DNA of 64,000 bases from Candidatus Versatilivorator sp. GTDB taxonomy: Bacteria; Acidobacteriota; Terriglobia; Versatilivoradales; Versatilivoraceae. Positions 4,850 through 61,091 of the stretch are shown in pieces. The stretch's first letter is position 1, and each line of letters starts with the position of its first letter. The stretch spans positions 5,152,001 to 5,216,000 of the forward strand of contig OZ242296.1 of NCBI GenBank assembly GCA_965207735.1, given 5' to 3'. Both the position numbers and the translations under genes were made by a program. The notes beneath the pieces are model-generated. The model was given only the letters and a program-made list of their open reading frames with translations, had not been told where the DNA came from and made no database searches.

Positions 4850-5012
4850 CCGCCCCCCACCGCATCAGCCTTCGCCATTCGGCTCGGCTTCTGCGACTCC
4901 CCCTCAAGGGGGGAGTAATAGGAGCGTCGTATGCTGGCCTCGAGTATCACTCCCCCCTTGAGGGGGAGTCGGAGAGACAAGGGCGAAGCCCGCAGTCGAT
5001 CCGGAGGGGGGC
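4850..5012. repeat. REP-like inverted pair between convergent genes
   Basis: CGACTCCCCCTCAAGGGGGGAGTAATA (4894-4920) and its reverse complement (4945-4971), 26/27 match; each arm is itself a hairpin; looser outer arms. Confidence 0.85.
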
Positions 5013-6617: not shown

Positions 6618-6880
6618 GGGCTTATCCCCCTCCTCTGCCTAAATCCGTAACCGAATGATTGAGAATTGTATAAGATAGGGGTGTTAAACAATGCAGCTGT
6701 TTTCGAGAGAAGGGGGACCGCCCGGGTCTGTAGGCGCAAGCGTTCGGGGGGCAGTGAGGACGTGCTGCCGCTTCCGCCCTTTTGAACGGGGCCAGGGACC
6801 AGGCAGCTTCCCAACCCTGCGCGTGCAGGCCGGATCCGTCGGCTCGAGGCAGCGGCCCACGGGAATCCTCGGAGGAAACC

Positions 6881-8467
6881 ATGAGCGTTACACGTCGCAA
6901 ATTCATGCAGGCCCTCACCGTTGCCGGGGGAGCGGGAGTGGCCGGCTCCTCTTCCGGCCTCCTGGCGGAGCCGCGTTCTGACAAGCACACTGGGCGCAAG
7001 AAAAGGACCCTCTATTTCAATGACGCCCGGCATTACTACCTCTACGTGTTCGAGCCTCCCATGACCATGGAGGACGCTTGGGTGCCCATTGACGAGGTGG
7101 CCGGAACGGCCGTGGACACCTTTGTCTACGGGGTGGAGAGAGGGGACGGCCTTTTCTATCCCTCCCGGGCAGGCCAGCGTTTCGGGGCCGACATGCGTCC
7201 CTTCGAGCTCACCGCCTACTGGCGCACCTGGGAGAACATGCAGAGCCTGATCGACCGGGGTCTGGATCCGCTGACCGTGCTGATCGACCGCGCCCATCAG
7301 AAAGGGATGGATTTCTTCGCCAGTGTGCGCATGGCCTCCTACGGGGGGCTGGAAAGCAAGTACAAGGTGCCCGAGGGCGGCCGGGGTCTGGCCCATGAGT
7401 TCGTGCGGGACCATCAGTACGCGGTGCTGAAGGAACTGGCCACCGAATACGCCACCGAGGGAGTGGAGCTGGACTTCGCAGCGGCGCCGGGGGGAATGCC
7501 TCTTTATGTGAGGCCGGAGGATTTGTCGGCCACGACCCCGGTGCTGACCGAGTGGGTAGCCAAGATCTCCGATGCCGTCCGCAATCGGCCCGGCAAGCCG
7601 GGCCTGGTTGGGGCGCGGGTCTATCCGACCGAAGAGATGTGCCTCAAGCAGGGCCTCGACGTACGGACCTGGATTCAGGAGGGACTGGTGGACTACCTGG
7701 CCCCCATCCTCTATATCGATTTCACCCTGGATGTGGACATGCCCATCGATTGGGTCATCGAAGCGGCCCACGCCAAGGATATCCCCGTCTACGGCACCCT
7801 TCAGCCCTATATCAGAGACGAAGCCACCGGGTCGGCGGCGGCGGCTCCCAAGAGGATCTACCCCACTCCCGAAAACGTGCGGGCGGCGGCCGCCAATTAT
7901 TTGAGACGCGGCGCCGACGGCCTCTATGCCTGGTTCATGCAGTGGCCTTTGGGTGACACGGAGCGGCGCATCCTGACCGAGCTGGGAGACCCGGAGCTGA
8001 TTCGGGAAGCCGACAAGCACTACGTGCTTCACGCGCGCTCCGAGCGGGGCGTTGAAATGGGCTACCAGTCCAGTCTGCCGCTGAAGATTCCCGGACCCGA
8101 ACCCGGCAAGCGCTACCCCATTCCCTTCTCGATTTCAGACGATATCGAGGGCAAGGCGGACAGGATCCGCCAGGTCATTCTGAAACTGCATATCGACAAT
8201 CTGCTGACCTCCGACCGGCTGACGGTTCTGCTGAACGGCCAGTCGCTGGCAGACGAGATCTGCCTGCGCGACTACGCCGACAATATCGTTCCCTACCAGG
8301 GGCAGTGGCTGGAGTTTCACCTGCGGAAGGTGCGTCCCCGCAAGGGTGAGAACCTGCTGGAAATATCCCTGGATGAGCGCCCGCCTCACATGGGAGTGGG
8401 TATCTCGGTGAAGTGGGTGGAAGTCCGGGTCGACTACGGTTTCTACCCGACCACGCCGAAAGCCTAA
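6881..8467 (+). CDS. Tat-exported GHL10-like protein (tandem copy 1)
   Basis: GGAGG RBS before ATG 6881; TRRKFM twin-arginine signal; YFNDA, SVRM, EGVELDF, GADGLY motifs. Confidence 0.7.
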   Translation: MSVTRRKFMQALTVAGGAGVAGSSSGLLAEPRSDKHTGRKKRTLYFNDARHYYLYVFEPPMTMEDAWVPIDEVAGTAVDTFVYGVERGDGLFYPSRAGQRFGADMRPFELTAYWRTWENMQSLIDRGLDPLTVLIDRAHQKGMDFFASVRMASYGGLESKYKVPEGGRGLAHEFVRDHQYAVLKELATEYATEGVELDFAAAPGGMPLYVRPEDLSATTPVLTEWVAKISDAVRNRPGKPGLVGARVYPTEEMCLKQGLDVRTWIQEGLVDYLAPILYIDFTLDVDMPIDWVIEAAHAKDIPVYGTLQPYIRDEATGSAAAAPKRIYPTPENVRAAAANYLRRGADGLYAWFMQWPLGDTERRILTELGDPELIREADKHYVLHARSERGVEMGYQSSLPLKIPGPEPGKRYPIPFSISDDIEGKADRIRQVILKLHIDNLLTSDRLTVLLNGQSLADEICLRDYADNIVPYQGQWLEFHLRKVRPRKGENLLEISLDERPPHMGVGISVKWVEVRVDYGFYPTTPKA

Positions 8468-8504
8468 CACGTTGGCATCTGGCTAGCCCCTCCCGGAGAT
8501 CATC

Positions 8505-10091
8505 ATGAGTGTGACCCGTCGTAATTTCATGCAGGCCCTCACCGTTGCCGCCGGAGCGGGAGCAACCGGCTCCTCCGCCGGCCTCCTGGCGGAGCCGCGT
8601 CCTGAAAAGCACACTGGGCGCAGGAAACGGACCCTCTATTTCAATGACGCCCGGCACTACTACCTCTACGTGTTCGAGCCCCCCATGACCATGGAAGACG
8701 CCTGGGTGCCCATTGACGAGGTGGCCGGAACGGCCGTGGACACCTTTGTCTACGGGGTGGAGCGGGGGGACGGTCTCTTCTATCCCTCCCGGGTGGGCCA
8801 GCGTTTCGGCGCCGACATGCGTCCCTTCCCGATCACCGCCTACTGGCGCACCTGGGAGAACATGCAGAGTCTGATCGACCGGGGCCTGGACCCGCTGACC
8901 GTGCTGATCGACCGCGCCCATGAGAAAGGGATGGATTTCTTCGCCAGTGTGCGCATGGCCTCCTACGGGGGGCTGGAAGGCAAGTACAAGGTACCCGAGG
9001 GCGGACGGGGCCTGGCCCACGAGTTCGTGCGGGACCATCAGTATGCGGTGCTGAAAGAGTTGGCCACCGAATACGCCACCGAGGGAGTGGAGCTGGACTT
9101 CGCGGCGGCGCCGGGCGGGATGCCGCTGTTCCTGAGACCGGAAGATGTTCCCGCCATGACCCCGGTGCTGACCGAATGGGTGGCCAAGATCTCCGAAGCG
9201 GTCCGCAATCGGCCCGGCAAGCCGGGCCAAGTCGGAGTCCGGATCTATCCCACCGAGGAGATGTGTCTCAAACAGGGCCTGGACGTGCGGGCCTGGATCC
9301 GGGAAGGTCTGGTCGACTACCTGGCGCCCATGCTCTATATCGATTTCACCTTGGACGTGGACATGCCGGTCGACTGGGTGGTGGAAGCGGCCCACGCCAA
9401 GGATGTTGCCGTCTACGGCGTCTTGGCGCCCTACCTCGGAGACGAAGCCAGCGGAACCGACCCGGCGGCGCTCAAGATCCTCTTTCCCACGCCTGAAAAT
9501 TTTCGCGCCGCCGCCGCCAATTACTGGAGGCGCGGCGTCGACGGGCTGTACGCCTGGTTTTTCCGATGGCCGCTGCAGGACGGGGAGCGGCGGGTGCTGA
9601 CCGAGTTGGGGGACCCGGAGCTGCTCCGGGAAGCCGACAAGCACTACGTGCTACACCGCCGCTCCAAGGGGGCGGTTGAAATGGGCTACCAGGCCGGTTT
9701 GCCCCTGAGGATGCCTGCCGGCGATGCCGGCAAGCGCTATTCCATTCCCTTTTCCATATCAGACGATATCGAAGGCGGGGCGGAACGGATCCGGCAGGTT
9801 GTTCTCAAGCTCTACGTCGACAACCTGGTGACGGGCGATCGCCTTACCCTGCTGTTGAACGGTCAATCCCTGGCGCAGGAGATCTGCCGGCGCGACCATG
9901 CCAATCGCATCGATCCCTGGCTGGGGCAGTGGCTGGAGTTTCATTTGCGGAAAGTGAGGCCGCGTCAGGGGGAGAACCTGCTGGAAATTTCCCTGGATGG
10001 GCGGCCGGCGGGAATGGAAGGGAGGATTTCGGTAGAGTCCGTCGAAGTCCGGGTCGAATACGGATCCTATCCGACCAGCCCGAGAGTATAG
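8505..10091 (+). CDS. Tat-exported GHL10-like protein (tandem copy 2)
   Basis: TRRNFM signal; N-terminal half near-identical to 6881-8467. Confidence 0.7.
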   Translation: MSVTRRNFMQALTVAAGAGATGSSAGLLAEPRPEKHTGRRKRTLYFNDARHYYLYVFEPPMTMEDAWVPIDEVAGTAVDTFVYGVERGDGLFYPSRVGQRFGADMRPFPITAYWRTWENMQSLIDRGLDPLTVLIDRAHEKGMDFFASVRMASYGGLEGKYKVPEGGRGLAHEFVRDHQYAVLKELATEYATEGVELDFAAAPGGMPLFLRPEDVPAMTPVLTEWVAKISEAVRNRPGKPGQVGVRIYPTEEMCLKQGLDVRAWIREGLVDYLAPMLYIDFTLDVDMPVDWVVEAAHAKDVAVYGVLAPYLGDEASGTDPAALKILFPTPENFRAAAANYWRRGVDGLYAWFFRWPLQDGERRVLTELGDPELLREADKHYVLHRRSKGAVEMGYQAGLPLRMPAGDAGKRYSIPFSISDDIEGGAERIRQVVLKLYVDNLVTGDRLTLLLNGQSLAQEICRRDHANRIDPWLGQWLEFHLRKVRPRQGENLLEISLDGRPAGMEGRISVESVEVRVEYGSYPTSPRV

Positions 10092-11868: not shown

Positions 11869-13323
11869 CTACGCCACGATCTCCTTGATCAGGCGGCCGC
11901 CCAGGTCGGTCAGGCGCTTGAAGCGCCCGGCGTGATAGTAGGTGAGCCGCATGTCGTTCAGGCCCAGGCTGTGCAGCATGGTGCCGTGGAGATCGTGGAG
12001 GTGATAGACGTTCTCGGCCGCCTTGATGCCCAGCTCGTCGGTGTTGCCCACCACCGTTCCGCCCTTGATGCCGCCGCCGGCCATCCAGGCCACCATGGCC
12101 TCCTTGTTGTGGTCGCGGCCGGGATGGGACCGGAAGAAGTCCATGGAGTTATCGGCGGTGCGTCCGAATTCCCCGGCCCAGACCACCAGGGTCTCATCCA
12201 GCAGTCCCCGCTGCTTCAGGTCCTTGAGCAGCGCCGTGACCGGCTGGTCGGTCTCGTAGCCCCGCTTGCGGTGCTCCTCGGCGATATTTTCGTGGGAGTC
12301 CCAGCCGCCGCAATAGACCTGGACGTAGCGGACACCCCGCTCCACCAGGCGGCGGGCCATCAGGCACCGTCGAGCCATGGGCTCCTTGATCTTGTCGTTG
12401 AGGCCGTACATTTCCTTGATCTTGTCGGGCTCGCTGTCGATGTCCACCGCCTCGGGCACGGCGAACTGCATGCGGAAGGCCAGCTCGTAATTCTTCATGC
12501 GGGCCAGCAGGTTCTCGTTGCCGGGGTCGGACTTCAGGTAGGGTCGGTTCAGCCGATTGAGCAGCGCGATGTCGGCCTGCTGCTGCTCCCGGGTGACTCC
12601 CTGCGGAGGCTGGAGATCGAAGATAGGCGCCCCCACCGAGTTCAACAGGGTGCCGTGGGTGGCGGCCGGCAGATATCCGTTGGAGTAGTTGACCGCCCCG
12701 CCGGAGATTCGTCCCCGCTGGTCGGGCAGGACCACGAAGGCCGGCAGGTTCTGGCTCTCGCTGCCGAGCCCGTAAATGACCCAGGAACCGACCGAGGGAC
12801 TGCCGGGAATGGGGACGCCCGTGTTCATCATGAAGCAGGCCCCGGGATGGGCCTCCGAGTCGGTGTGGAGCGATCGGACCACGGCGATGTCGTCCACGCA
12901 GGTGGCCAGGTGGGGAAAGATCTCCGAAACTTCCATGCCGCACTGCCCGTGCCTTGCGAACTTGAAGGGGCTGCCCACGTAAATCCGCTTTTCCAGGCTG
13001 CCGTAGACGCGGGTGACCGGGGTCCCGTGATACTTGGCCAGCGCCGGTTTGGGGTCGAAGGTGTCCATCTGGCCGGGAGCCCCCTCCATGAAGAGAAAGA
13101 TGCAGGCCTTGGCCTTGGCGGCGAAGTGGGGTTGCTTGGGAGCCAGCGGGTCCGGAGCAGTATCGGCCGCCTGAAGCCAGCCGTCCCGGCAGAGCAGCGA
13201 CGAGAGCGCCAGGCTTCCCACGCCTCTGCCGAATCCGTACAGGAAGTCCCTGCGCCCCATCTCTCCCAGGCGCGGGTCCGGTCGTTCCACCCGTGAACAA
13301 ACCTCGAACTCACTCTTGGCCAT
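11869..13323 (-). CDS. DUF1501 family protein (Tat signal)
   Basis: GRRDFL; KAKACIFLFMEG.P.QMDTFDPKP; ARRLVERGVRYVQ; GWDSH; GEFGRT; GRDH. Confidence 0.92.
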   Translation of the reverse strand: MAKSEFEVCSRVERPDPRLGEMGRRDFLYGFGRGVGSLALSSLLCRDGWLQAADTAPDPLAPKQPHFAAKAKACIFLFMEGAPGQMDTFDPKPALAKYHGTPVTRVYGSLEKRIYVGSPFKFARHGQCGMEVSEIFPHLATCVDDIAVVRSLHTDSEAHPGACFMMNTGVPIPGSPSVGSWVIYGLGSESQNLPAFVVLPDQRGRISGGAVNYSNGYLPAATHGTLLNSVGAPIFDLQPPQGVTREQQQADIALLNRLNRPYLKSDPGNENLLARMKNYELAFRMQFAVPEAVDIDSEPDKIKEMYGLNDKIKEPMARRCLMARRLVERGVRYVQVYCGGWDSHENIAEEHRKRGYETDQPVTALLKDLKQRGLLDETLVVWAGEFGRTADNSMDFFRSHPGRDHNKEAMVAWMAGGGIKGGTVVGNTDELGIKAAENVYHLHDLHGTMLHSLGLNDMRLTYYHAGRFKRLTDLGGRLIKEIVA

Positions 13324-13374
13324 GATTGCTCCTCTTGCTTACCGTCATTACCGGACGCCCTGTTCAGGCAGAAC

Positions 13375-15933
13375 TCATTCCAGGAAGATGAACTCGTTCA
13401 TATTGACGAGAACCAGGCAGAGACGCGCCAGCAGATCGCCGCGGGGCTCTTTCCGCCTGTCCAGTGACTCGCCCAGATCGTTTCCGAAACGGATGGCCCG
13501 CAGCGTCACCTTGGGGGGAGACTCCGGATCGAGCCGATCTTGCCTCAGAAAGGCCAGGCACTCGTTGCGCTCCAGAGCCGAAGGAGGACGTTGAAAGGCC
13601 AGTTGGAAGGCATGCTCCACCTGGCGTTCGGAATCGTCTCCCGCCTCCCGCCGGATGCGGTCCGCCATGAAGCGGGCCTGCTGGTGGGAGAATCTGCTGT
13701 TGAGCAGGGTGAAGACCTGGGGGGTCACGGTGGTGACGTCCCTGACGGGGCAGCTCTCGTTGATATTGGGACCGTCGAACACCGCCACCATGGGGAGCTG
13801 CAAGGAGCGGCACTGCAGCACGTAGAGGCTGCGGCGGCTTCGTTCCGGGCGCGGCGACGGCTCCCACCACACCCCGGCGCGCTGCTGCACCGCGTCGTCG
13901 ATATCGGGGAAGAAGGGCGGACCTCCCACGGAGGGATTGAGTTGTCCGCTGACTGCCAACACGCTGTCCCGCGTGACCTCGGCTTCCAATCGGATGGGGT
14001 TTCGCCGCCACAGGTAGCGGTTGTCGCTGTCCAATCTCCGGTAGGCCTCCAGGTGGGGCGTTCGCAGGGATTGCCGGTAGACACTGGACTGCAGGATGAT
14101 CCGCTGCATCTCCTTGATGCTCCAACCGCTCTGGATGAACTGCCAGGCCAGCCAGTCGAGCAGCTCCCGGTGGACAGTGCCCCCGCCGTTCTTGCCCAGG
14201 TCGCTGGGCGTGGACACCAGGCCGCGGCCGAAATGGTACTGCCAGATCCGGTTCACCATCACCCGGGCCGTCAAGGGGTTGTCGGGGCTGGCGATCCATT
14301 CGGCCAGCAGCTTGCGGGAGCTTCCCCTCGAAGAGCGAATGTCCAGACCCTTGTAGTCCACCGGCCGGGAATGGCCGGTGACGGCGCTCAGGACTCCCGG
14401 TTCCACGGCCTCGCCCAGAAGCTTGTAGTTGCCCCCTTTCAGCACATAGGTGGTGGGGGGACCGGCGGTGTGGGCGCGGAAGCCCTGCGAGGCCACAAAG
14501 GCCATGGCCTTGTAGTAGTCGGGGCTGTTGGGGTTGGCGAAACGCTGGCCTTGTCGTGAAATCAGTCGCAGCCGTTCCACTTCCTCCTTGGCATAAAGGG
14601 ATCTCTTGGGGAAGGGGGTGCGTTTCAGATCGGAGACCACCCAGTCCTTGAGATCCTGGGGAGCCATGAGCTGGTAATGGGGAGCCACCCGGGCCGCCAG
14701 CCCGGCCTTGAACTTGGCGGCCTCCTCCTTGCGCTGTTCCAGCAGGTTCTTCCAGTCCTCGGCCTTCTTCTTCCATAGGCCGGGATCCAGTTCCGGAAGC
14801 TCGTAGGGGGTGAAGGGCACGGGTTCAGGGCCGACCGTCAGCGGAGCAAAGAAGGCTTCCATTCGGTAGTAGTCCCGCGTGGGAATGGGATCGTACTTGT
14901 GGTCGTGGCAGCGGGCACAGCCCAGGGTCATTCCCAGGAACACCGAACCCGTGGTTCCGACCACGTCATTGAGGAAGTCCCGTCGGGTTTGGGGCGAATC
15001 CACTCGCTGCACGAACACCCACTGGTGCAGGAACCCGGTGGCGATCTTGCCCTCCGCCCCATATTTTCTGTAGGCGTCTCCGGCGAGCTGCTGCCGGATG
15101 AAGCGGTCGTAAGGCATGTCCCGGTTGAAGGCTCGGACCACGTAGTCCCGGTAACGCCACATGTGGGGTCGGGGATAGTCGACGGCCTCGCCCACCGTGT
15201 CCGAGTAGCGCACCAGGTCCAGCCAATGCCTTCCCCAACGCTCGCCGTAGGCCGGATTGTCCAGCAGCCCCTCGACAGCGTCGCGGTAGGCGTCCTCCGA
15301 GGGGTCCTGGAGAAAGGCGGCCATGGCCTCGGGAGAGGGCGGCAGACCGGTCAGTCCGAAGTGGATCCGTCTCAACAAGGCGCGCCGGGAGGCCGGTGGG
15401 GCCGGCTCCATACCCTTTTTCTCCAGGGTAGCCAGGATGAAGGCGTCAATCGGATTGCGGACCCACTGATGCTGCTCTACCGTTGGGACCTCGGGCAGGG
15501 CCAACCGGGTCCAGGGCCAGCTCTTGGAGCCGCCCGAGGCGCGGTCCGCCGCCACATCGGCCGGCTTCAACCCGTCGATCCAGGCGGCGATGAGGCTGAT
15601 CTCCCCGTCCGTCAGCCGCGAGCCGTCCATCGGCATTGCGGGCTCGGTGTCGCCCTTGACTCTTGAGACCAAGGGGCTGGCGGCGCTGTTGCCGGCAATC
15701 ACCGCCGGTCCATCCAGCGCGCCGCCTTCCAGCAGAGCATCCAGCGTGTCGACCACCAGGCCGCTCTGGTGCATCTCGGCCCCGTGGCAACTCTGGCAGT
15801 GCTGGTCCAGAATGGGCCGGATGTCCCGCTCGAAGCTGATCTCGTCACTCTGGCCACGAGCGATGGGGACCAGGGATTGGGCTGACAGGACGAGAAGCGC
15901 GGCGAGGCAGAGGTGGCTGAACAAGTGGTTCAT
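13375..15933 (-). CDS. PSD1/planctomycete cytochrome c protein (DUF1549+DUF1553)
   Basis: CQSCH heme motif, NPIDAFI, YGERWGRHWLDLVRY, CARCHDHKYDPI, NPLTARVMVNRIWQ.HFGRG, C-terminal NEFIFLE. Confidence 0.92.
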   Translation of the reverse strand: MNHLFSHLCLAALLVLSAQSLVPIARGQSDEISFERDIRPILDQHCQSCHGAEMHQSGLVVDTLDALLEGGALDGPAVIAGNSAASPLVSRVKGDTEPAMPMDGSRLTDGEISLIAAWIDGLKPADVAADRASGGSKSWPWTRLALPEVPTVEQHQWVRNPIDAFILATLEKKGMEPAPPASRRALLRRIHFGLTGLPPSPEAMAAFLQDPSEDAYRDAVEGLLDNPAYGERWGRHWLDLVRYSDTVGEAVDYPRPHMWRYRDYVVRAFNRDMPYDRFIRQQLAGDAYRKYGAEGKIATGFLHQWVFVQRVDSPQTRRDFLNDVVGTTGSVFLGMTLGCARCHDHKYDPIPTRDYYRMEAFFAPLTVGPEPVPFTPYELPELDPGLWKKKAEDWKNLLEQRKEEAAKFKAGLAARVAPHYQLMAPQDLKDWVVSDLKRTPFPKRSLYAKEEVERLRLISRQGQRFANPNSPDYYKAMAFVASQGFRAHTAGPPTTYVLKGGNYKLLGEAVEPGVLSAVTGHSRPVDYKGLDIRSSRGSSRKLLAEWIASPDNPLTARVMVNRIWQYHFGRGLVSTPSDLGKNGGGTVHRELLDWLAWQFIQSGWSIKEMQRIILQSSVYRQSLRTPHLEAYRRLDSDNRYLWRRNPIRLEAEVTRDSVLAVSGQLNPSVGGPPFFPDIDDAVQQRAGVWWEPSPRPERSRRSLYVLQCRSLQLPMVAVFDGPNINESCPVRDVTTVTPQVFTLLNSRFSHQQARFMADRIRREAGDDSERQVEHAFQLAFQRPPSALERNECLAFLRQDRLDPESPPKVTLRAIRFGNDLGESLDRRKEPRGDLLARLCLVLVNMNEFIFLE

Positions 15934-24139: not shown

Positions 24140-26677
24140 GTGTTGAGACCGATCTCGATCGGGGTGGCTCTTTTCACCGGTTTGGCGGCTTTCGCAGGCG
24201 CGGCTGAGGATACCTCGGTCCGGTTCCGGACGCAGATCAAACCCATCCTGGAGACCCACTGCCTTTCCTGCCACGACACCCGGACCCACAACAGCGGCCT
24301 GGTGCTGGAAACGCCGGAGGCCATTCTCCGGGGAGGCGCCCTCAACGGCCCCGCCGCCCAGCCCGGCAATGCCGCATCCAGTCCCCTGATCCAGTACCTT
24401 CGGGGTGAGAAGCAGCCGGCCATGCCCCTGGGAGAACCACCCCTGCCTGAGGAGGAGATCGGTCTGATCGCCGCATGGATCGACCAATTGCCGCCCCCGG
24501 CCGATGCTTCACAGGGAAAGGGAGCGGCCTGGCCCTTCACCCGCCTGAAGCCGCCGGGCATCCCGGCAGTTCGAAACCGGCACTGGGTGAGAAACCCCAT
24601 CGACGCCCTGGTCCTGGCCAAGTTGGAGAAACAGGGGATGCAACCGGCGCCGCCGGCTTCCCGGCGGTCCCTGCTGCGCCGGGTCTATTTCGATCTGACC
24701 GGCATGCCACCCACTCCGGAAGCCATGGCACGGTTTCTCGGTAACCCGGGCCAGGATGCCTATGAGCAGGAAGTCGAGAAACTGCTGCGCAATCCCCACT
24801 ACGGGGAGCGTTGGGGCAGGCACTGGCTCGATCTGGTTCGCTACGCCGATACCGAAGGGGGTGGCCCCGACTACCCTCGCCCCCACATCTGGCGCTACCG
24901 GGACTACGTCATTCGCGCTTTCAATCAGGACCGCGCTTACGACCGTTTTATCAAGGAGCAGCTGGCCGGCGATCTGAATGCGGTTTACGGCGCGGAGGGC
25001 AAACTCGGACTCGGGTTCCTCAATCTGGGGGTCGTCGGAGAGGACTCCGGGCGGCAGAATCTGCTGGTCGATTTGGTCGCCACCACCGGATCGGTCTTTC
25101 TGGGGCTCACCCTGGAGTGCGCTCGCTGTCACGACCACAAGTACGACCCCATTCCCACTCGCGACTACTACCGGACCGAGGCCTTCTTTTCCTCCCTCAG
25201 CCTGGGTGAAGCCGACCTTCCCTTTACTCAGTACGAGGGTCCCAGTCTCGATCCTGAAGCCTGGAAAGAGCGTGCCGAAGCCTGGCAGCGGGAGTTGGAC
25301 CAGCGCAAGGAGTTGAAGGAGAAGACCACGGCGGAATTTCTGAAGCGCCTGGAAAAGCCATTCCACCTGGTCGGAGGGCAGGACCTGAAGGACGGTGTGG
25401 TGCCGCTGGGCGATGCCGGCGAACTGAAGACGGCTCTCAATCGTGGAGTTCTGTTCACGCGGGAGGAGAGGGAACTCTATCGCCTGATCGAGAGACAGAA
25501 CACCGCCTACGGCAACGTGAGCCATCGGGATTACTTCAAGCCCAGGGTGCACGCCGCCCAAGAAATTCAGAGCCGGTATGGGGGACGTCGTCCCCACCCC
25601 GCCATGCCCACCACCTACATCCTGATGGGCGGCAATCCGGAATCCAGAGGGGAGGCGGTGCAGCCGGGTTTTCTGAACGTGCTTGAGGAGCAGTTTCCGT
25701 TCGAGAGCGAGAATCCCAGACAGAACCCCCGGCAGACGCTGGCCGAGTGGATCGCCCATCCCGACAATCCCTTGACGGCCCGAGTCATGGTGAACCGAAT
25801 CTGGCAGCACCATTTCGGCGAGGGGCTGGTGCGGACTGCCAGCGACTTCGGGCGGAACGGATCCGGAACCCTACACCCCGAGTTGATCGATTTTCTGGCC
25901 TCCTATTTTGTGCGGAACCGTTGGAGCATCAAGGCCGTGCATCGATTGATCCTGCAATCCAATGTCTACCGGCAGTCGATTCGGAACCCCCGCGCCGAGG
26001 AGTACCGCTCCCGGGACCCCGACAACCGCTACTTCTGGCGGAGCAATCCGCTACGATTGGAGGCCGAGGCGATCCGGGACAGCATTTTGGCCGTGAGTGG
26101 AGAGTTGAATCCCAGGATCGGAGGACCGGGATTCTTTCCCAAGGTCGAGGAAGACCTGTTGTGGGAGGGGGGAACCTGGTGGAAACCCTCCAGTCGGGAG
26201 GAAAGGAATCGGCGCACCGTCTACATGTGGCAGGGGCGGTCTTTTCAACTGCCCATGATGAGCGTCTTTGACGGAGCCAATCTGAACGAAAGCTGCTGGA
26301 GGCGGCAAGTGACCACCGTAGCCCCGCAGGTGTTCGCCCTCTTCAACAACCCCTTCGTGCACGAGCAGAGTCGCAGGATGGCGCGGCGGATCGTCCGGGA
26401 GGCAGGACCCGACCCCCAATCCCGACTGAAGCGGGCCTTCCAGTTGGCCCTTCAGCGGGATCCCACGCCCGAGGAATATTCCCGCGGGCTGGACTTTCTG
26501 ACGCGGCCCCTGACGGCCAGCCAGCCTCCCATAGAGTTGGCCAAGGGGCCCGCTACTGAGCCGGGGGTGGGCTCGGAGGCTTCGTTGCGGCTGCCGCCGC
26601 CTGCCGGAGACCAGGACCGGCTGGCCGACCTCTGCCTGGTTCTGTTGAACATGAACGAGTTCATTTTCTTGGAGTGA
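24140..26677 (+). CDS. PSD1/planctomycete cytochrome c protein (DUF1549+DUF1553), second copy
   Basis: CLSCH, YGERWGRHWLD, CARCHDHKYDPI, NPLTARVMVNR, NEFIFLE; GTG/TTG start approximate. Confidence 0.9.
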   Translation: MLRPISIGVALFTGLAAFAGAAEDTSVRFRTQIKPILETHCLSCHDTRTHNSGLVLETPEAILRGGALNGPAAQPGNAASSPLIQYLRGEKQPAMPLGEPPLPEEEIGLIAAWIDQLPPPADASQGKGAAWPFTRLKPPGIPAVRNRHWVRNPIDALVLAKLEKQGMQPAPPASRRSLLRRVYFDLTGMPPTPEAMARFLGNPGQDAYEQEVEKLLRNPHYGERWGRHWLDLVRYADTEGGGPDYPRPHIWRYRDYVIRAFNQDRAYDRFIKEQLAGDLNAVYGAEGKLGLGFLNLGVVGEDSGRQNLLVDLVATTGSVFLGLTLECARCHDHKYDPIPTRDYYRTEAFFSSLSLGEADLPFTQYEGPSLDPEAWKERAEAWQRELDQRKELKEKTTAEFLKRLEKPFHLVGGQDLKDGVVPLGDAGELKTALNRGVLFTREERELYRLIERQNTAYGNVSHRDYFKPRVHAAQEIQSRYGGRRPHPAMPTTYILMGGNPESRGEAVQPGFLNVLEEQFPFESENPRQNPRQTLAEWIAHPDNPLTARVMVNRIWQHHFGEGLVRTASDFGRNGSGTLHPELIDFLASYFVRNRWSIKAVHRLILQSNVYRQSIRNPRAEEYRSRDPDNRYFWRSNPLRLEAEAIRDSILAVSGELNPRIGGPGFFPKVEEDLLWEGGTWWKPSSREERNRRTVYMWQGRSFQLPMMSVFDGANLNESCWRRQVTTVAPQVFALFNNPFVHEQSRRMARRIVREAGPDPQSRLKRAFQLALQRDPTPEEYSRGLDFLTRPLTASQPPIELAKGPATEPGVGSEASLRLPPPAGDQDRLADLCLVLLNMNEFIFLE

Positions 26678-26737
26678 AGCTTCGCCGAAGTCCCAGGTTT
26701 TTTTCGGCTCCGCCAGGAGAACCTTGCAAGAAAAACC

Positions 26738-28192
26738 ATGAAGCCTCCCAATCACGAATATTGCGGTCGATTCGAAGCCCCCGCTGCTTCCATGGGTGAG
26801 CTGGGGCGCCGGGATTTCCTGTTTCGCCTGGGACGCGGCGTTGGCGGCGTGGCCCTTTCCTCGATGCTTTTTCGGGAGGGCCTGCTGGGCGCCGGGGCAA
26901 CCGACAATTCGCTGGCGGCCAGGAAGGGCCATCGGCCGGCCCGGGCCAAGTCATGCATTTTCCTGTTCATGGCGGGCGGTCCCAGCCAGATGGACACTTT
27001 CGATCCCAAGCCGTTGTTGAACAAGTACCACGGCACCCCGGCCTTCGACGGCGCTCAGTTGCGCACCTCCGGAAGGAAGCTGCTCTACGTGGGAAGCCCC
27101 TTCCGCTTCAACAAGTTCGGCCGGAGCGGCACCGAAGTTTCGGACATGTTTCCCCATCTGGCCACCTGCGTGGACGACATGGCGGTGGTGCGGTCGATTC
27201 ACACCGACTCCGACGCCCACTCCCTGGCCACCTTCCTGATGAATACAGGGGCAGCGCTGCCCGGCAGTCCTTCGCTGGGTTCCTGGACGGTCTACGGGTT
27301 GGGAACCGAGAACGAGAATCTGCCGGCCTTCGTGGTGTTTCCCATCAGCGGCACCGGGGGCTTTGGCGGGCCCCAGAACTGGTCCAACGGATACCTGCCG
27401 GCCATCTACCAGGGAACCCCCCTCAAGTCGGAAGGTGTTCCCATCGTGGATCTGCAGCCCCCTGCGGGCACCACCGCCGGACGTCAGGAATCCAATATTC
27501 AGTTACTGAACCACTTCAACCGGCCCTACCTGGAAGGCCACCCGCTGAAGAGCGACCTTTGGGCCCGGATGAAGAACTACGAACTGGCCTTCCGCATGCA
27601 GATGACGGTGCCGGAAGCGTTGGACGTGGACAAGGAGCCGCCGGCCATTCGGGAGCTGTATGGACTCGACAACAAGATTACCGAGCCCATGGGCAGACGG
27701 TGCCTCATGGCCCGGCGACTGGTGGAGCGGGGCGTGCGCTTCGTGCAAATCTACTCCCGGGGCTGGGACTCCCACCAGGATATCGCCGGCCAGCACCGCC
27801 TGCGAGGCCTGGAAACCGACCGGCCCATGGCGGCCCTGTTGAAGGACCTCAAGCAGCGGGGCCTGCTGGATCAGACCCTGGTGGCCTGGGGAGGAGAATT
27901 CGGCCGCACTCCCCAGAGCCTGCCCCACAACTGGAAGGCCCCCGGGCGCGAACACAACAAGACGGCCATGCCCATGTGGTTCGCCGGTGGCGGCGTGAAG
28001 GGAGGCACGGTTGTGGGAGCCACCGATGAGCTGGGCGAGAAGGCGGTCGAGAACCCCTACCATCTCCACGATCTGCACGCCACCTTCCTTCACCTGATGG
28101 GGTTGGACGACATGCGCCTTTCCTACTACCACGCCGGCAGGTTCAAGCGCCTCACAGACCTGGGTGGCAACATCATCAAGGAGATGGTTTAG
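26738..28192 (+). CDS. DUF1501 family protein, second copy
   Basis: GRRDFL; RAKSCIFLFMAGGPSQMDTFDPKP; GWDSH; GEFGRTP. Confidence 0.92.
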   Translation: MKPPNHEYCGRFEAPAASMGELGRRDFLFRLGRGVGGVALSSMLFREGLLGAGATDNSLAARKGHRPARAKSCIFLFMAGGPSQMDTFDPKPLLNKYHGTPAFDGAQLRTSGRKLLYVGSPFRFNKFGRSGTEVSDMFPHLATCVDDMAVVRSIHTDSDAHSLATFLMNTGAALPGSPSLGSWTVYGLGTENENLPAFVVFPISGTGGFGGPQNWSNGYLPAIYQGTPLKSEGVPIVDLQPPAGTTAGRQESNIQLLNHFNRPYLEGHPLKSDLWARMKNYELAFRMQMTVPEALDVDKEPPAIRELYGLDNKITEPMGRRCLMARRLVERGVRFVQIYSRGWDSHQDIAGQHRLRGLETDRPMAALLKDLKQRGLLDQTLVAWGGEFGRTPQSLPHNWKAPGREHNKTAMPMWFAGGGVKGGTVVGATDELGEKAVENPYHLHDLHATFLHLMGLDDMRLSYYHAGRFKRLTDLGGNIIKEMV

Positions 28193-29992: not shown

Positions 29993-31744
29993 TTGGCCAT
30001 GAAGTTTTGTTGTTTTACTCTCGTACGATCGGCCCGGCACGGTGAGGCCGCAGACTGGATAGGGCGCCGGCTGAAAAGGGGACATCGTTTTTGGTCTATG
30101 TGTATGGATCGAGACAATCCAGGGGAAAACAGTTCTCCGGAACGGTTCCGATTCGCCGGCCGGGAGTCATCTTCCCAAGGCAGGCGAGGTGAGGACGTCG
30201 CCGGGCGGGGCCTGTCCTCCAAAGGGGCAGTCCGGCTGAGCCGGGGCGGGCACGATCTGTTTCCCGGTCCTTCGGCACGGCTGGCGGTGGGCCTCGTGCT
30301 TTGTCTGCTGCTTGCGGTTGGATTCACCAGCCTCGACCCGACCGATGCCGCGCCCGATGAGTTGCTGATTTTCCATCAGCAACGAAGGATTCGCCTGCCA
30401 CTGGTCTCCGTCGACGGTCAGAGCTACGTCCCCATCCTGGATGTCCTTCACCTTCTCGACCTGGCTTATTCCGAGAGCGGCTCGGCGGGGTACCTGCGGA
30501 TATTTGCCGGCAGGGAGGTGGTGGAGTTGAATCGCAACCGGGTTCGGGTGCGATTGAATCGGAGCTCGATCGGCCTTGCGGCGCCGGTCCTGTTCCATGG
30601 GGGGCGCTGGCTGACACCGCGTGGATTTGTTCCCGACGTGCTGAACCGGGTGCTCAAACCCGCCATCAGGGTATCTCCCTCCGGGAACCGGTGGTTGACC
30701 GGAGGCCGGGATTTCGTCCGAATCAATCTCACCGCCCGCACCACCGATGAGGCCAGCCGTTTGGTTGTCTCCATGGCGAACGCCGGCGAGGTGCAGGTTC
30801 GTGGCGAGGCACGCCGCATTCTGTTTCTGCTGGGCGCTCTTCCGGTCGATCCTCCCGGAGCCGAGGTCACCTCCTATCGGGATGAGCGGATCGGGGGTGT
30901 TTCGTTTGAGGAAACCGCCGAATCGAGCCGTTTGGTGGTCTCGCTGACTGGCGAGTTCGTCCAGGCCCGCCTGACCCGGCTGCCGGGCCAAAATGCCTAC
31001 CTGGTAGACGCCCACCGGCTCACCGAGGAAGCCCCGTCGGCCCCTCAGGAACCGAAGCGGTCATTGCGCTGGACAAGCCGGCCCCGGGCATCCGGTTGGA
31101 GGCGAATCACCATCGATCCCGGGCACGGGGGCGCCGACAGGGGGGTGGAGGTCGGGGAGGGTGTCTACGAGAAGGACGTCACCCTATCCATCGCTCGCAA
31201 GGTGCGTTGGGTGCTGGAAAGCAAGCTGGGGGTGGAGACGATATTGTCTCGCGGCCAGGACCGGACGCTGTCGTTGGAAGATCGCGCCCGGGAGGCCAAT
31301 CGCAGCCGCTCCGATCTCTTTCTCAGCATACACCTGGGAAATGGCGCCTCGCCGATCCCTTCCCGGAGCTACGTCTATCTGGCGAAATTGCCCCCCGGGG
31401 AGGCTCTTGCGCAGGACCGGGTCGAGGAAGCCGCGTTCGAACTGGTGCTCTGGGATCGCGCCCAGGCGGGTGTGCTTCATCGAAGTTTCCGCCTGGCTGA
31501 AATCTTGCAAGCGGTGACCAACGAGCGCTTCAATGGTGGCGAACCGCTGACTTTTCGGCATGCCCCGCTGAGGCTCCTGTCCCCACTGGCGATGCCGGCC
31601 GTGCTGCTGGAGCTTGGAAGCGTGAAGCAGGACAATTTCAGGGAGAGGGTGCTCACCGAGCCCTTTCAGAACGGCGTGGCCATAGCCGTGCTGTCGGCCC
31701 TGCAACAGTTTCGCCCCCTCGATGAAGCGGCCATGGCTCGCTAG
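29993..31744 (+). CDS. N-acetylmuramoyl-L-alanine amidase (Amidase_3)
   Basis: ITIDPGHGG, EKDVTLSIA, FLSIH, MPAVLLELG zinc-binding motifs. True start is probably downstream of 29993. Confidence 0.82.
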   Translation: MAMKFCCFTLVRSARHGEAADWIGRRLKRGHRFWSMCMDRDNPGENSSPERFRFAGRESSSQGRRGEDVAGRGLSSKGAVRLSRGGHDLFPGPSARLAVGLVLCLLLAVGFTSLDPTDAAPDELLIFHQQRRIRLPLVSVDGQSYVPILDVLHLLDLAYSESGSAGYLRIFAGREVVELNRNRVRVRLNRSSIGLAAPVLFHGGRWLTPRGFVPDVLNRVLKPAIRVSPSGNRWLTGGRDFVRINLTARTTDEASRLVVSMANAGEVQVRGEARRILFLLGALPVDPPGAEVTSYRDERIGGVSFEETAESSRLVVSLTGEFVQARLTRLPGQNAYLVDAHRLTEEAPSAPQEPKRSLRWTSRPRASGWRRITIDPGHGGADRGVEVGEGVYEKDVTLSIARKVRWVLESKLGVETILSRGQDRTLSLEDRAREANRSRSDLFLSIHLGNGASPIPSRSYVYLAKLPPGEALAQDRVEEAAFELVLWDRAQAGVLHRSFRLAEILQAVTNERFNGGEPLTFRHAPLRLLSPLAMPAVLLELGSVKQDNFRERVLTEPFQNGVAIAVLSALQQFRPLDEAAMAR

Positions 31745-33124: not shown

Positions 33125-33369
33125 GCCCGCATTTCTCACCAGGCCGCTGGTGCCATGACGAGAAGTAGTTTATCTTCAGTACTTTGATTGGCTCTCTGGT
33201 AAGGGCTTGCGGGTAACAGACGGCGCTGGGCATGCCCTGGCTTGTCTTTTTCCCTTCAGCGCGCACATGCTCCCTCGCGCGTAGTGACCGCTACGCTCTT
33301 CGATCGCGAGCACGCCCTGAAGGGAAAAATCCTGCGCCATGATCATGCCCCCTGGTGAGAAATGCGGGC
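33125..33369. mobile_element. 245-bp MITE (intron-free copy)
   Basis: Perfect 19-bp TIRs GCCCGCATTTCTCACCAGG...CCTGGTGAGAAATGCGGGC; no transposase; second copy at 61339-62452. Confidence 0.9.
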
Positions 33370-33419
33370 TAGCCGGGCAGCGCACCAATTTCGGACCGCA
33401 TGGCTGGAGCGTCCAGAGC

Positions 33420-34058
33420 GTGTCCCTCAAGCCCAAACCAACCTTTCGCTCATTGAAGTCTTCCCTGGGCCCCCGCCTACTGGTGGCCACCTTCAACCCG
33501 GGAAAGCTCACGGAAATGAAGGCCTCACTGGTGATGGCGCCGGTGGAGTTGGTGTCTCTCGAGGCGATCCCCGGTGTGGCCCCGGCCCCGGAAGAGGGGA
33601 CCACGTTCGAGGCCAACGCCCGCCAGAAGGCTGTCCACTACAGCCAACTCACTTCGTTCCCCACCATTGCCGACGACTCGGGCCTGCTGGTGGATGCGCT
33701 GGGCGGTCGGCCGGGGGTCTATTCCGCCCGTTACCTCGGCGAGCAGGCCAGCGATGAGGAACGCTGCCGGAAAATCCTGGAGGAATTGGCCCAGCTGGAG
33801 GATGCCCGGCGGACGGCCAGATTCGAGTGCTGGATCGCGCTGGCTCGCGAGGGAGTAGTGTTGGAGGTCTTCCGAGGGACCCTGGAGGGCGTGATCGGAC
33901 GAGATCTGCGAGGGGACAACGGATTTGGCTACGACCCCATCTTCCAGGTTCCCGAGCGGGGCTGCTCGCTGGCCGAATTGAGTCCCGAGGAAAAGCTGCG
34001 CATCAGCCACAGGGGCCGGGCCCTGCGAAAGTTTCAGCAGGCGCTGTTCGGGGTCTGA
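33420..34058 (+). CDS. rdgB: Non-canonical purine NTP pyrophosphatase (RdgB/HAM1)
   Basis: [59 protein letters not shown]; follows rph. Start approximate. Confidence 0.93.
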
Positions 34059-40457: not shown

Positions 40458-40797
40458 GAGGTTATCCACGAAGGCCCGAAAAGAAATCCACGAAGGGACA
40501 CCAAGGATCACGAAGAATATCGAGGATCAATTAAATTTGGTCTAATACAAATTATTTTGTTCTTTTATTGACGCCCGGTTCTTCTTCTTGTATTCTTCAA
40601 ATTCCAAGCGAGCCTGCCAAGTGTGAGGCACTTGACAGGCCCTTAGCATGACCCATCCTATGCCGGAGGACGAGCCCGCCTGATCAGCATTATACTGCAT
40701 CAACAGTTGGTTCCAGCCCGGCATAGGACTCCTTCCCTATTTCGCTGTTCCTCATGTAGGGATTCATGTTCGTGGTCGTTAGGGAATACGGGAGCAG

Positions 40798-43935: not shown

Positions 43936-44024
43936 ACGGAACGAGTTCCAACTCGCGAAAGGCCATGAATCTTGGTTGTTTCACTCTGGAATGATTCGCC
44001 TGGCAGGCTGGTGGTCCGGCGCGA

Positions 44025-46463: not shown

Positions 46464-46482
46464 CCTGGTGAGAAATACGGGC
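46464..46482. mobile_element. Solo MITE terminal repeat
   Basis: CCTGGTGAGAAATACGGGC, 18/19 match to the MITE TIR; no partner seen nearby. Confidence 0.65.
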
Positions 46483-49744: not shown

Positions 49745-50110
49745 CCGGCCCCCGCCCTGGTGTGCGGATCATACATAGAGTGAAACAATCAGAAATCGAT
49801 CAACCCTTCGCGAACTTGGTACCCCGTCGCGGCAAACCTCAGCGCCTTAGTGCCCCTTCGTCGTTCTTCGTGTCCCTTCGTGGATAAGTCTTTTTCTTTT
49901 GTCTTTTTTCTTTTGTTTCAGGCAAGCCGCGCCCCTGCCCTGCCGTGCAGATCATACGAGAGTGAAACAATCAGAAATCGACCAATCCCTTCGCGACCTT
50001 GGTATCCCGTTACGGTTCACCTCAACGCCTTAGTGTCCCTTCGTCGTCCTTCGTGGCCCTTCGTGGATCACTCTTTTCCGTTTGTCTTTTTTCGGTTGTT
50101 TCAGACAAGA
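49745..50110 (+). repeat. Two tandem ~183-bp units of a dispersed repeat
   Basis: GATCATAC..AGAGTGAAACAATCAGAAATCGA...CCCTTCGTGGAT...TTGTTTCAG starts at 49767 and 49950; truncated unit at ~49681-49745; inverted copy at 60908-61091. Confidence 0.9.
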
Positions 50111-58927: not shown

Positions 58928-60982
58928 ATGAGTGCTGTCGATCCAATTCCGGCAGGGTTCCAGGGGCAACGGGTAGTTGCCTTCGAAAGCCGTTTGGCCG
59001 AGGAAATGGCCTCATTGATCTCCAGACACCAGGGTGTGCCCCAACTGGCGCCGGCCATGTCGGAGGTCCCGCTGGAAGAGAACGTCGGCGCCATCCGATT
59101 TGGGGAAAGGCTGCTCCGGGGAGAGGTTGCGGTGGTGGTCTTCATGACAGGCGTGGGAACCCGGACCCTGATGGAGGTGCTGCACAGGCGCTACCGGCAA
59201 CGGGACCTGCTTCGGGCCCTGGCCGGAGCTACCCTGATCGCGCGCGGCCCCAAGCCCATTGCAGCCTTGCGGGCCCTGGGGCTGTCCACGGTCATTCCCG
59301 TTCCCGAACCCAATACCTGGCGAGAAGTTCTGGAAGTGATGGATACCAGCGAGGGTTGCCCCAACCTCTCCGGATTGACGGTGGCCGTTCAGGAGTATGG
59401 GACCCCCAATCGACCCTTTCTGGAAGAACTCGGGAAAAGGGGAGCCGAGGTGCTCCAGGTCCCGGTCTATCGGTGGACGCTGCCCTCCGACACCCGTCCC
59501 CTTTGTCGTGCCATCGATGCCCTGATCGCCGGAACCTGCCAGGTTGCCCTGTTTACCAATTCCGTGCAGGTGTCGCACCTCTTCCAGTTGGCAAGCCAGC
59601 AGCGGAAGGCCGCTGCGTTGCGCCACGCGTTGAACGGTACGGTAACCGCTTCAATCGGGCCCAATTGCAGCCAGGCGCTGCGCCGCGAGCTGGTGCGAGT
59701 GGACCTGGAAGCCGGCCAGCCCAACATGGCCTGCCTGGTGGAGGAGGCCTCCAGGAGAGGCGCCGGCATGACGCGGAGCAAAGAAGCCTCCCCTTCTTCC
59801 AGAGTGGTCGTTCCGGTGGAGGTGGACTCGGGAACTAAGGACCCGTCGACCTGCAACCCGTTGGACAGCAGCGTCTTCATGAGAGCCTGCCGCCGCCGGT
59901 CCACCGAATACACGCCGGTCTGGCTCATGCGCCAGGCCGGGCGCTACATGGCGGAGTACCGGGCTATTCGCTCCAGGACCTCATTTCTCGGCTTGTGCAA
60001 GAACTCCGACCTGGCAGCCGAAGTCACCGTGACCGCGGCCCATCGTCTCGGAGTGGATGCCGCCATCATCTTTGCCGATATCCTTCTGATCGTGGAGCCC
60101 ATGGGCTTGGGTCTCACCTTCGAGGACGGGGAGGGGCCCAGCATCCAGGGGGTGATCCGTTCACAGGCGGAGGTGGATCGTCTGTCGGAAGTCAACCCGG
60201 AGGAATCCCTGTCCTTCGTGTTCGACGCCGTTCGCAAGGCTCGGGCAGGCCTGCGGTCCGACCTGCCGCTGATTGGGTTTGCCGGCGCCCCCTTTACGCT
60301 GGCCTCCTACATCACCGAGGGGGGAGGGTCCAAGAATTACATCCACACCAAGGAGCTGATGTACCGCCATCCCGGAGCCTGGGACAGCATGATGCAGTTG
60401 ATTTCCCGGAGCGTGACCCGGTACCTCAACGGGCAGATTCGCGCCGGGGCGCAGGCCGTTCAGCTCTTCGACAGCTGGGCCGGCTGCCTCAGCCCCGAGG
60501 ACTACCGGCGCTCGGTGCTGCCCTACACCGTCCAGGTGATCGAAAACATCAGGCCCCGAGTACCGGTCATCTACTTCTCGACGGGTACCGGCGGATACCT
60601 GGAGTTGGTTGCGTCGACCGGGGCCGACGTGATCGGGGTGGACTGGCGCATCGACTTGGCTCGGGCCTGGGCCAAGATCGGCGAGGGGCAGGCGGTGCAG
60701 GGCAACCTGGATCCCCTGGCGCTGCTGGGGGATCCCGGGAGCATCGCGGACAAAGCCGGGGAAATCCTGGATCGGGTTGGAGGGCGGCCGGGCCACATTT
60801 TCAATCTGGGCCACGGCGTTCTGCCCCAGACCCCGGTGGATCACGTGGTGAGACTGGTGGACGCCGTTCACGAGCGAAGCCGGAAGGCAGGGTCATCCGA
60901 AGGAGGGGCTTGTCTGAAACAACCGAAAAAAGACAAAAGACTTATCCACGAAGGGGCACGAAGAACGACGAAGGGACACTAA
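58928..60982 (+). CDS. hemE: Uroporphyrinogen-III synthase / uroporphyrinogen decarboxylase fusion (HemD-HemE)
   Basis: N-terminal AFESR, FMTGVG, ARGPKP, VPVYRW, SIGP (HemD); C-terminal PVWLMRQAGRYMAEY, IGFAGAPFTLASY, QGNLDP, HIFNLGHG (HemE). Confidence 0.93.
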   Translation: MSAVDPIPAGFQGQRVVAFESRLAEEMASLISRHQGVPQLAPAMSEVPLEENVGAIRFGERLLRGEVAVVVFMTGVGTRTLMEVLHRRYRQRDLLRALAGATLIARGPKPIAALRALGLSTVIPVPEPNTWREVLEVMDTSEGCPNLSGLTVAVQEYGTPNRPFLEELGKRGAEVLQVPVYRWTLPSDTRPLCRAIDALIAGTCQVALFTNSVQVSHLFQLASQQRKAAALRHALNGTVTASIGPNCSQALRRELVRVDLEAGQPNMACLVEEASRRGAGMTRSKEASPSSRVVVPVEVDSGTKDPSTCNPLDSSVFMRACRRRSTEYTPVWLMRQAGRYMAEYRAIRSRTSFLGLCKNSDLAAEVTVTAAHRLGVDAAIIFADILLIVEPMGLGLTFEDGEGPSIQGVIRSQAEVDRLSEVNPEESLSFVFDAVRKARAGLRSDLPLIGFAGAPFTLASYITEGGGSKNYIHTKELMYRHPGAWDSMMQLISRSVTRYLNGQIRAGAQAVQLFDSWAGCLSPEDYRRSVLPYTVQVIENIRPRVPVIYFSTGTGGYLELVASTGADVIGVDWRIDLARAWAKIGEGQAVQGNLDPLALLGDPGSIADKAGEILDRVGGRPGHIFNLGHGVLPQTPVDHVVRLVDAVHERSRKAGSSEGGACLKQPKKDKRLIHEGARRTTKGH

Positions 60983-61091
60983 GGCGCTGAGGTTGGCCGC
61001 GACGGGGTACCAAGTTCGCGAAAGGATTGTCGATTTCTGATTGTTTCACTCTCGAATGATCTGCACGGTAGGGCAGGGACGGGGGGCGGCT
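60908..61091 (-). repeat. Inverted copy of the ~183-bp repeat
   Basis: Reverse complement aligns with the 49925-50108 unit over its length. Confidence 0.88.

Follow-up and report, generated by a model that had tools for sequence, protein, structure and literature searches.

How does a group II intron come to sit in some copies of a dispersed repeat end and leave other, perfectly matching copies empty? The window analysed here, a stretch of 64,000 nt (C1:5152001-5216000 of genome G000, one single 5.26-Mb contig), poses this question with two similar MITEs, one empty and one split by an intron. The first-pass annotation had read each MITE as a carrier of two homing sites, and had left it between a composite that still transposes, carrying the intron, and one in which the intron acts as a brake on its host. 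We suggest that the intron, which is ORF-less and occupies one fixed position in 28 IS1380-type ends of this genome, very probably reached them by separate retrohoming events, using the borrowed, endonuclease-less RT of a related intron and entering at the end that faces the lagging-strand template.

Repeat ends in the window and the element they belong to

The end sequence GCCCGCATTTCTCACCAGG occurs exactly at 33125-33143 (+), 33351-33369 (-) and 62434-62452 (-), and all three sites are without intron, as the first-pass annotation had described; the chance expectation for matches in the window is 0.04 (up to three mismatches). A fourth site, overlooked at that stage, is a solo repeat end with one mismatch at 46464-46482 (-), also empty and on the leading-strand template. 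The first two sites bound an empty MITE of 243 bp (33126-33368, +) with IS1380-type 17-bp inverted repeats, located between the rph stop codon and the RdgB/HAM1 gene. Its left-end homing site (33126-33139, +) comprises IBS2 and IBS1 at 33126-33138 and the +1 position at 33139, and its right-end site lies at 33355-33368 (-). The mechanical RdgB ORF call (33339-34058) begins inside the MITE; as the RdgB family match begins at residue 46, the true start is downstream of this call.

The second MITE is 95% identical to the first, and its left end is split by an 869-nt insert. Here, the filled site (61339-61352) is followed directly by the intron (61353-62221). The outer 13 bp of the left repeat (61340-61352, +) form the 5' exon, with CCCGCAT as IBS2 and TTCTCA as IBS1, while the remaining 230 bp (62222-62451, +) form the 3' exon. 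The right end of this filled MITE (62438-62451, -) is an empty site on the leading-strand template. A perfect target duplication is absent at both window MITEs (TAAG/CTAG and TTAG/CTAG).

Among the relatives, the MITE of 33126-33368 is found in none of the 12 whose rph locus spans it (the locus is incomplete in a 13th), and at the tRNA-Gly site, where the filled MITE is located, none of 12 loci has the MITE, G005 holding a solo repeat end there. The first-pass annotation had also advised looking for occupancy polymorphism in reads. None is visible at the 33126-33368 MITE, as the contigs of X1 and X2, two short-read runs of one sample that is possibly the source, pass unbranched through both its ends, although assembled contigs lose rare variants.

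The repeat end is common to a 1698-bp element with a 455-aa transposase of the IS1380 family (NF033539, 410.6 bits; PF13701). Pairing the ends genome-wide gives 65 elements: 21 IS copies, 34 full-length MITEs of 242-254 bp and 10 shorter or mis-paired ones; one MITE (C1:1997530-1997774), mis-paired by the script, is not among the 34. When the element start is taken as CCCGC, a perfect 4-bp target duplication of the CTAG/CTAA/TTAG type flanks 47 of the 65 elements, including 20 of the 21 IS copies. The transposase profile, the short inverted repeats and the 4-bp duplication thus all agree with IS1380. With this start, the leading G of GCCCGCATTTCTCACCAGG is the last base of the target duplication, so that only 13 element bp lie outside the intron; the 14 bp given originally include one base of target DNA. 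In a 17-bp repeat the intron therefore divides the end 13+4. These 17 bp are all that MITE and IS have in common. The MITEs are short, multi-copy, without transposase, equipped with IS-like ends and present or absent among relatives, and, judging from the shared ends and the duplications, they are presumably mobilised by the transposase of the partner IS1380. In one relative, G009, there are 602 empty perfect repeat ends, about five times the number in G000, i.e., a very large IS1380/MITE burst, with 7 ends filled.

The window contains other repeats as well. Two long inverted paralogous blocks (12158-15520 and 24529-27909) are 70-80% complementary and are probably two related genes on opposite strands. 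A 300-nt direct repeat (6870-7169 and 8494-8793) is 91% identical over its two copies, 1624 nt apart, and a hairpin repeat at 4890-4975, with 31-nt arms that are 94% complementary, is REPIN-like by shape only.

The ORF-less intron, its guides and its relatives

The insert at 61353-62221 (+) is an ORF-less group II intron of 869 nt, GTGCG...AC, with matches to RF02003 (80.8 bits) and RF00029 (41.2 bits), both above the gathering score. It has the domain I core, the 5' GUGYG and the 3' AY of group II, and comparison of filled with empty sites reveals a precise insertion without duplication. In the predicted fold, domain V (62080-62113, +) contains an AGC triad and a 5-nt GAAAA loop, and the long domain VI (62116-62219, +; z -4.6) has a predicted bulged A at 62215, seven bases before the intron end.

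G000 contains 28 copies of this intron, 22 of them identical and six with 1-3 differences in 869 nt. All sit behind the repeat 13-mer, which is perfect in 27 cases and has one mismatch in the other. The hosts are 11 MITE left ends, four right ends, four shortened MITEs, six IS copies (both ends being used) and three solo ends. The contig depth in X1, which may be the source sample, is 223 for the intron and 6-11 for unique flanks, which agrees with a true copy number of about 20-35. A lone intron copy without cognate RT or transposase, which the first-pass annotation had named as the outcome that would sink its reading, is thus far from what we find, as the 28 copies are accompanied by the IS1380 transposase and by RTs. 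A single intron copy in sample X3, suggested by one unbranched 683-nt contig, was rejected; unique DNA there is at about 2x, the detection floor. No splice joint skipping exactly the intron is present among the joints listed, which come from assembled contigs. Contigs of the RNA libraries X15 and X17 are deep on related introns but were not counted as support, since the strains are different ones and neither expression nor splicing can be read from contigs; two RNA runs holding related sequence carry the label sponge metagenome.

A few degraded copies are also present. At L006:340-600 (G000:C1:572744) only the initial 7 bases of the intron stand behind the MITE repeat, after which the MITE sequence continues; this is likely the scar of an intron loss via deletion at a GCC microhomology. 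L009 (G000:C1:4260992-4261108) is a 117-nt remnant, internally deleted with both ends kept, and at L004 (C1:331225) about 19 nt from the 5' end of the intron are left, following a repeat end with one mismatch. Within domain I of the intact intron, an antisense sigma-70-like site, TTGACA-18-TATCGT (window ~61448-61477, -; L025:1934-1905), scores 10/12, with 0.2 expected in shuffles. It points outward through the repeat, into the IS1182 transposase gene where an IS1182 adjoins, and it is found in the repeat-end type of domain I and altered in the sister introns.

EBS1 (TGAGAA, 61572-61577, +) is the complement of IBS1, the last six bases 5' of the insertion point, and it covaries with IBS1 across five target types in G000 and its relatives (TTCTCA, AAGACA-like, ATTACA, AATTCA and TTAACA, plus a GACACA variant). 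The EBS1 stem-loop was not recovered by single-strand folding (z 0.38), so the assignment rests on covariation. The putative EBS2 (ATGCGGG, 61553-61559, +) is complementary to repeat positions -13 to -7; this 7-bp complementarity is limited to the repeat-end type, and both it and the covariation are partial in the sister introns. Taken together, the two complementarities give a predicted guide that spans exactly the 13 element bases outside the intron. A candidate EBS3 (G at 61644, +) pairs with the +1 C and is A in two introns having +1 T; it pairs in all listed loci except L044.

Related introns of about 1995 nt that carry an RT are found in 15 copies in G000, and 14 of these have an intact frame of 452-456 codons. 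The RT (452 aa) has RVT_1 and GIIM domains and no endonuclease match in the one protein scanned, the other 14 aligning over the same length; tblastn found no further RTs in the genome. One RT intron, intact and with the same EBS1 and EBS2, is located in the same repeat end (C1:5004992), 13 near-identical ones are mostly in a second dispersed repeat, and one is in a third repeat. The best plasmid matches of the RT are 45-54% identical and have no class label. The 5-nt loop of domain V and the long domain VI (the latter class F) match features given for classes E/F (PMC3753933), and RT size together with RNA features points away from class D.

The second dispersed repeat, the main target of the 13 RT sister introns, is also a hot spot for IS1380 insertion. 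Its window copies (49777-50109 and 60902-61084, with partial ones at 40479-40515, 43973-44020 and 30007-30041) are empty. The third repeat contains a short palindrome (L003, L005, L009, L018, L040). Three insertions target it in G000, namely an RT intron, an ORF-less intron and a remnant, and so does an intron in G002.

The alignments between the intron types reveal a mosaic. Domain I of the abundant ORF-less intron is 84-98% identical to that of the same-repeat RT intron, while domains IV-VI are only about 55-70% identical to those of any resident RT intron, none of which is therefore a clear parent of the ORF-less 3' half. A second ORF-less intron, at C1:1135573, has a domain I that is 98-100% identical to the third-repeat RT intron, including EBS1 and target, joined to a 3' half that is 93-100% identical to the abundant ORF-less intron. 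In G004 and G008, ORF-less copies have the same 3' half (93-94%) with a third domain I type and target the second repeat. Five relatives contain the ORF-less 3' end with an identity of 96-99%, and in G012 a version that is 90% identical follows an RT frame. From this patchwork of identities we infer that the mosaic may have arisen by recombination or template switching.

Strand bias and the route of spread

The first-pass annotation had proposed counting occupied and empty ends genome-wide and comparing their orientation with replication and transcription. In this count, introns occupy 24 of the 66 perfect sites of G000 that lie on the lagging-strand template; for the leading-strand template the figure is 3 of 81 (Fisher p=2.5e-7). 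The origin is taken as dnaA (3.54 Mb) and the terminus is inferred from the GC-skew peak (0.73 Mb); with the terminus placed at two alternative positions, the values become 23/66 vs 4/81 and 25/66 vs 2/81. A search for a dif-like motif gave no match, and DnaA boxes gave no mark of the origin. The same lagging-template bias is found in 13 of the 15 RT-bearing introns. It is also seen in three relatives that are kin to each other, where, with the terminus set opposite dnaA, the filled ends on the lagging template are 11/13 in G011, 7/7 in G009 and 9/12 in G005 (total 27/32, p=1.1e-4). G004 and G008 have no filled end of the IS1380-repeat type. The GC skew runs contrary to the replichore at G000:C1 ~3.95-4.50 Mb and 2.75-3.1 Mb, which suggests recent inversions or assembly joins at repeats.

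These numbers change how the window sites should be read. As the two ends of an element face opposite ways, each new IS or MITE copy provides one good and one poor site. The idea of two homing sites per MITE thus holds in that both ends are used, but they are used very unequally. Likewise, all three perfect window sites are empty, yet only 33125 (+) lies on the lagging-strand template, the favoured class, and the other two, including the right end at 33355-33368 on the leading-strand template, belong to the disfavoured class and are poor targets. MITEs do supply many landing sites, as had been proposed; however, site number alone brings no more introns, and the ends are far from saturated (602 empty and 7 filled in G009, 48 empty and 13 filled in G011).

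On the lagging template, one-mismatch sites are less occupied than perfect ones (1/25 vs 24/66, p=0.001). A change from A to G at -1 is the most frequent of these variants, and 0 of the 8 sites that have it are filled (p=0.048). The lower occupancy of one-mismatch sites may also reflect greater age. Several other patterns were discarded: a G/C preference at position -18 seen in G000 was not repeated in the relatives (11/17 loci, by eye), a shortage of perfect sites on the lagging template (66/147) had p=0.25, and an avoidance of double filling (0 of 65 elements doubly filled, ~2.6 expected at random) was not significant. In G011, each end of the MITE at L028 (G011:C1:2784298-2786271) carries an intron, and the two introns show 44 differences over 866 positions.

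The strand bias could in principle be due to selection or transcription direction instead of the homing mechanism, since 56% of genes are on the leading strand, and without the IS1182-flanked sites the lagging sites behind a co-oriented gene are fuller (13/35 vs 4/24, p=0.14). However, the bias is independent of upstream-gene direction, with 13/35 and 11/31 filled on the lagging template vs 2/45 and 1/36 on the leading one, so even leading-template sites behind co-oriented genes are almost all empty (gene directions come from a crude codon-odds script). Transcription orientation thus does not account for the bias, and we regard this explanation as very unlikely.

Such a bias fits retrohoming at the replication fork. 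In the mechanism that we propose, the spliced intron RNA would bind an RT from among the 15 related ones that G000 encodes and would reverse-splice into single-stranded DNA at the fork; a nascent primer of the lagging strand would then start the copying, a pathway that RmInt1 and RmInt2 have been shown to use. The composite of intron and MITE would then rarely move as a unit. Further evidence comes from the hosts. The filled MITEs differ from each other by a mean of 8/243 nt (105 pairs), while their introns are near-identical, and the shared intron variants C806A and C433T each occur in unlike hosts. Diverged hosts, near-identical introns, recurrent variants and the strand bias together argue for separate insertions.

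Not all observations fit equally well. The first-pass annotation had pointed out that monophyly of the intron-bearing MITE haplotypes would speak for hitch-hiking and polyphyly for repeated retrohoming. An AU test on the MITE tree (33 rows, scar copy left out; the tree is weak) speaks against monophyly of the left-end composites, but rejects it only at p-AU 0.044, and a clade of all filled MITEs is not rejected (p-AU 0.076). In addition, the filled MITE of the window is identical to the one at C1:5027596, which counts against separate insertions, and three of the perfect sites that are filled have the leading-template orientation, which counts against the lagging-template model. Two of these three wrong-strand copies are located, respectively, near the terminus and in a reversed-skew region.

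It is conceivable that, in addition to retrohoming, a part of the MITEs or IS copies with an intron can still move by transposition in one piece, with 13 of 17 repeat bases kept. The identical left-end pair formed by the window composite and C1:5027596 is what this minor second route would produce, and so is another pair of composites, two differences apart, of which one member is on the wrong strand (C1:54570). IS copies filled at the right end show a strand ratio of 2:2, and all other filled perfect sites one of 22:1 (p=0.049, post hoc). Moreover, ISEcp1/ISEc9 of the IS1380 family uses right ends that match at 3-12 of 14 bases (PMC12116815), and such acceptance of poor right ends leaves room for a minor contribution here. 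Against it, the clustering of same-end composites, assessed on the 25 MITEs in which both ends are perfect, is not significant (p=0.19, 0.08 and 0.09 at 0, 2 and 3 differences), the window composite is without a perfect target duplication, and one wrong-strand IS copy is 37 kb from the inferred terminus while the other lies in a reversed-skew region. We consider such a second route rather unlikely. As the main route, transposition of the composite is incompatible with the 24:3 strand ratio. A stable intron-transposon chimera that moves as a unit, similar to an IStron (PMC4227781), would be co-inherited; here the same intron is found in six kinds of ends and in diverged hosts.

Gene conversion or homologous recombination between repeats could also spread the intron, with no RNA intermediate. 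It could account for the identical composite pair and the near-identical copies, and the genome does show rearrangements. However, many filled sites (IS ends and solo ends) have only 13-17 bp of flank in common, no replichore bias is predicted, and EBS1 tracks the target. This makes it extremely improbable.

The proposed retrohoming is compatible with a brake on the host, which is no alternative to it. The intron cuts the outermost 13 bp off from the rest of the repeat and the subterminal sequence, and in this way could immobilise the element and limit the spread of IS1380 and its MITEs. The 13+4 split geometry and a strand bias unrandomised by later jumps would fit this, the same role has been proposed for RmInt1 and RmInt2 (PMC5894124), and filled ends are fewest where empty ends are most numerous, in a comparison of just two genomes (7 vs 602 in G009, 13 vs 48 in G011). 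On the other hand, 14 of the 21 IS copies and 19 of the 34 full MITEs are intron-free so far, so the family has not been stopped, and the scarcity of composite progeny may merely reflect an intron burst that is too recent. For us, the arguments for and against a brake are about evenly balanced.

One association concerns another element. An IS1182-family element (NF033551) has 13 copies, nine of them 99.9-100% identical, e.g., L025:394-1792 (G000:C1:5026013-5027591). Its promoter-side end adjoins a perfect IS1380-type end in 9 of the 13 copies; by comparison, 97 of 1718 CTAG sites are beside a perfect repeat end. The lagging-template ends flanked by IS1182 are filled in 7/7 cases, against 17/59 for other lagging ends (p=4e-4). 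In the relatives, 0 of 17 filled loci (a subset of the 32) have an IS1182 flank, and a consensus scan of the IS1182 end revealed no outward promoter.

It can be speculated, with considerable reserve, that the ORF-less introns form a long-lived, SINE-like non-autonomous lineage that swaps domain I with whatever RT introns are available and in this way passes between repeat families across the genus, that IS1380 ends are a hub for parasites, and that right-end-filled IS copies still jump and carry the intron to the strand that is out of its own reach. If so, IS1380 ends would stack IS, MITE and intron, with IS1182 landing beside the filled ends.

Comparison with known systems

The closest system is RmInt2 of Sinorhizobium meliloti GR4, located in the inverted repeats of ISRm17, where each IS offers two sites on opposite strands and one is assured on the lagging strand (PMC4615759). 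The core idea of two sites per element is thus already published. Both introns target an IS inverted repeat with either end usable, both are served by an endonuclease-less RT, and both are biased to the lagging template. However, RmInt2 has its own RT (class D, 419 aa), 7 copies and a full IS as target, whereas in G000 it is the ORF-less form that is abundant (28 copies), the hosts are mostly MITEs or solo ends that belong to an IS1380-family element, the RT of the related introns has 452 aa and the RNA has class E/F-like features.

RmInt1 inserts inside a transposase gene. Like the intron described here, RmInt1 in ISRm2011-2 shows fork retrohoming, a lagging-template bias and a proposed role as a brake on the IS, a role that a review proposes for introns of this kind; it differs in being autonomous and in sitting inside an IS630-family element and not in an end repeat (PMC5894124).

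In Thermosynechococcus elongatus, ORF-less families of TeI3 are moved in trans by "driver" RTs (PMC2882425). The likeness is considerable, as ORF-less copies outnumber RT-bearing ones (17 vs 8), the families have different EBS, one family is in an IS200 element, and identical inner introns in diverged hosts were taken as independent insertions (PMC2882425). The TeI3 RTs, however, have an endonuclease domain, and the ORF-less forms are deletion derivatives of a resident intron (PMC2882425). In G000, in contrast, no resident RT intron comes closer than about 55-70% to the ORF-less form in domains IV-VI, and the ORF-less lineage is found in six genomes of the genus, joined to three domain I types. 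Bacterial ORF-less introns are described as rare in a review (PMC4424553).

On the side of the host element, ISEcp1/ISEc9 has the same transposase family, a 4-5 bp target duplication and a tolerance of imperfect right ends (PMC12116815), which makes transposition of a composite conceivable in G000; no intron is involved in the parts of that source seen, and the tolerance described is that of ISEcp1. The sections of PMC12584367 and PMC11602168 available to us contain nothing on introns in transposon ends, and our literature search, with most subscription journals lying outside it, found no report of introns in MITE or IS1380 ends. Three features did not appear in our searches and are apparently new: MITEs as intron targets, an ORF-less lineage whose copies in six genomes of the genus have differing targeting domains, and the stacking of IS1182 next to filled ends (7/7 cases).

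The occupation of repeat ends by the intron is real and well supported, and the principle is known. What G000 adds to the earlier systems is a naturally occurring map that covers about 150 matched targets on both strands, some filled and some empty, and that displays the fork-dependent homing rule at genome scale with no experiment needed; the rule is repeated in three relatives. The matched filled and empty elements also make the old proposal of the intron as a brake directly testable. No other intron of G000 is as numerous as the ORF-less lineage, which persists across six genomes of the genus although its targeting domains have been exchanged. In comparison with RmInt1, RmInt2 and TeI3, the contribution thus rests on strand data for a whole genome, on an ORF-less lineage of mosaic structure and on the association with IS1182.
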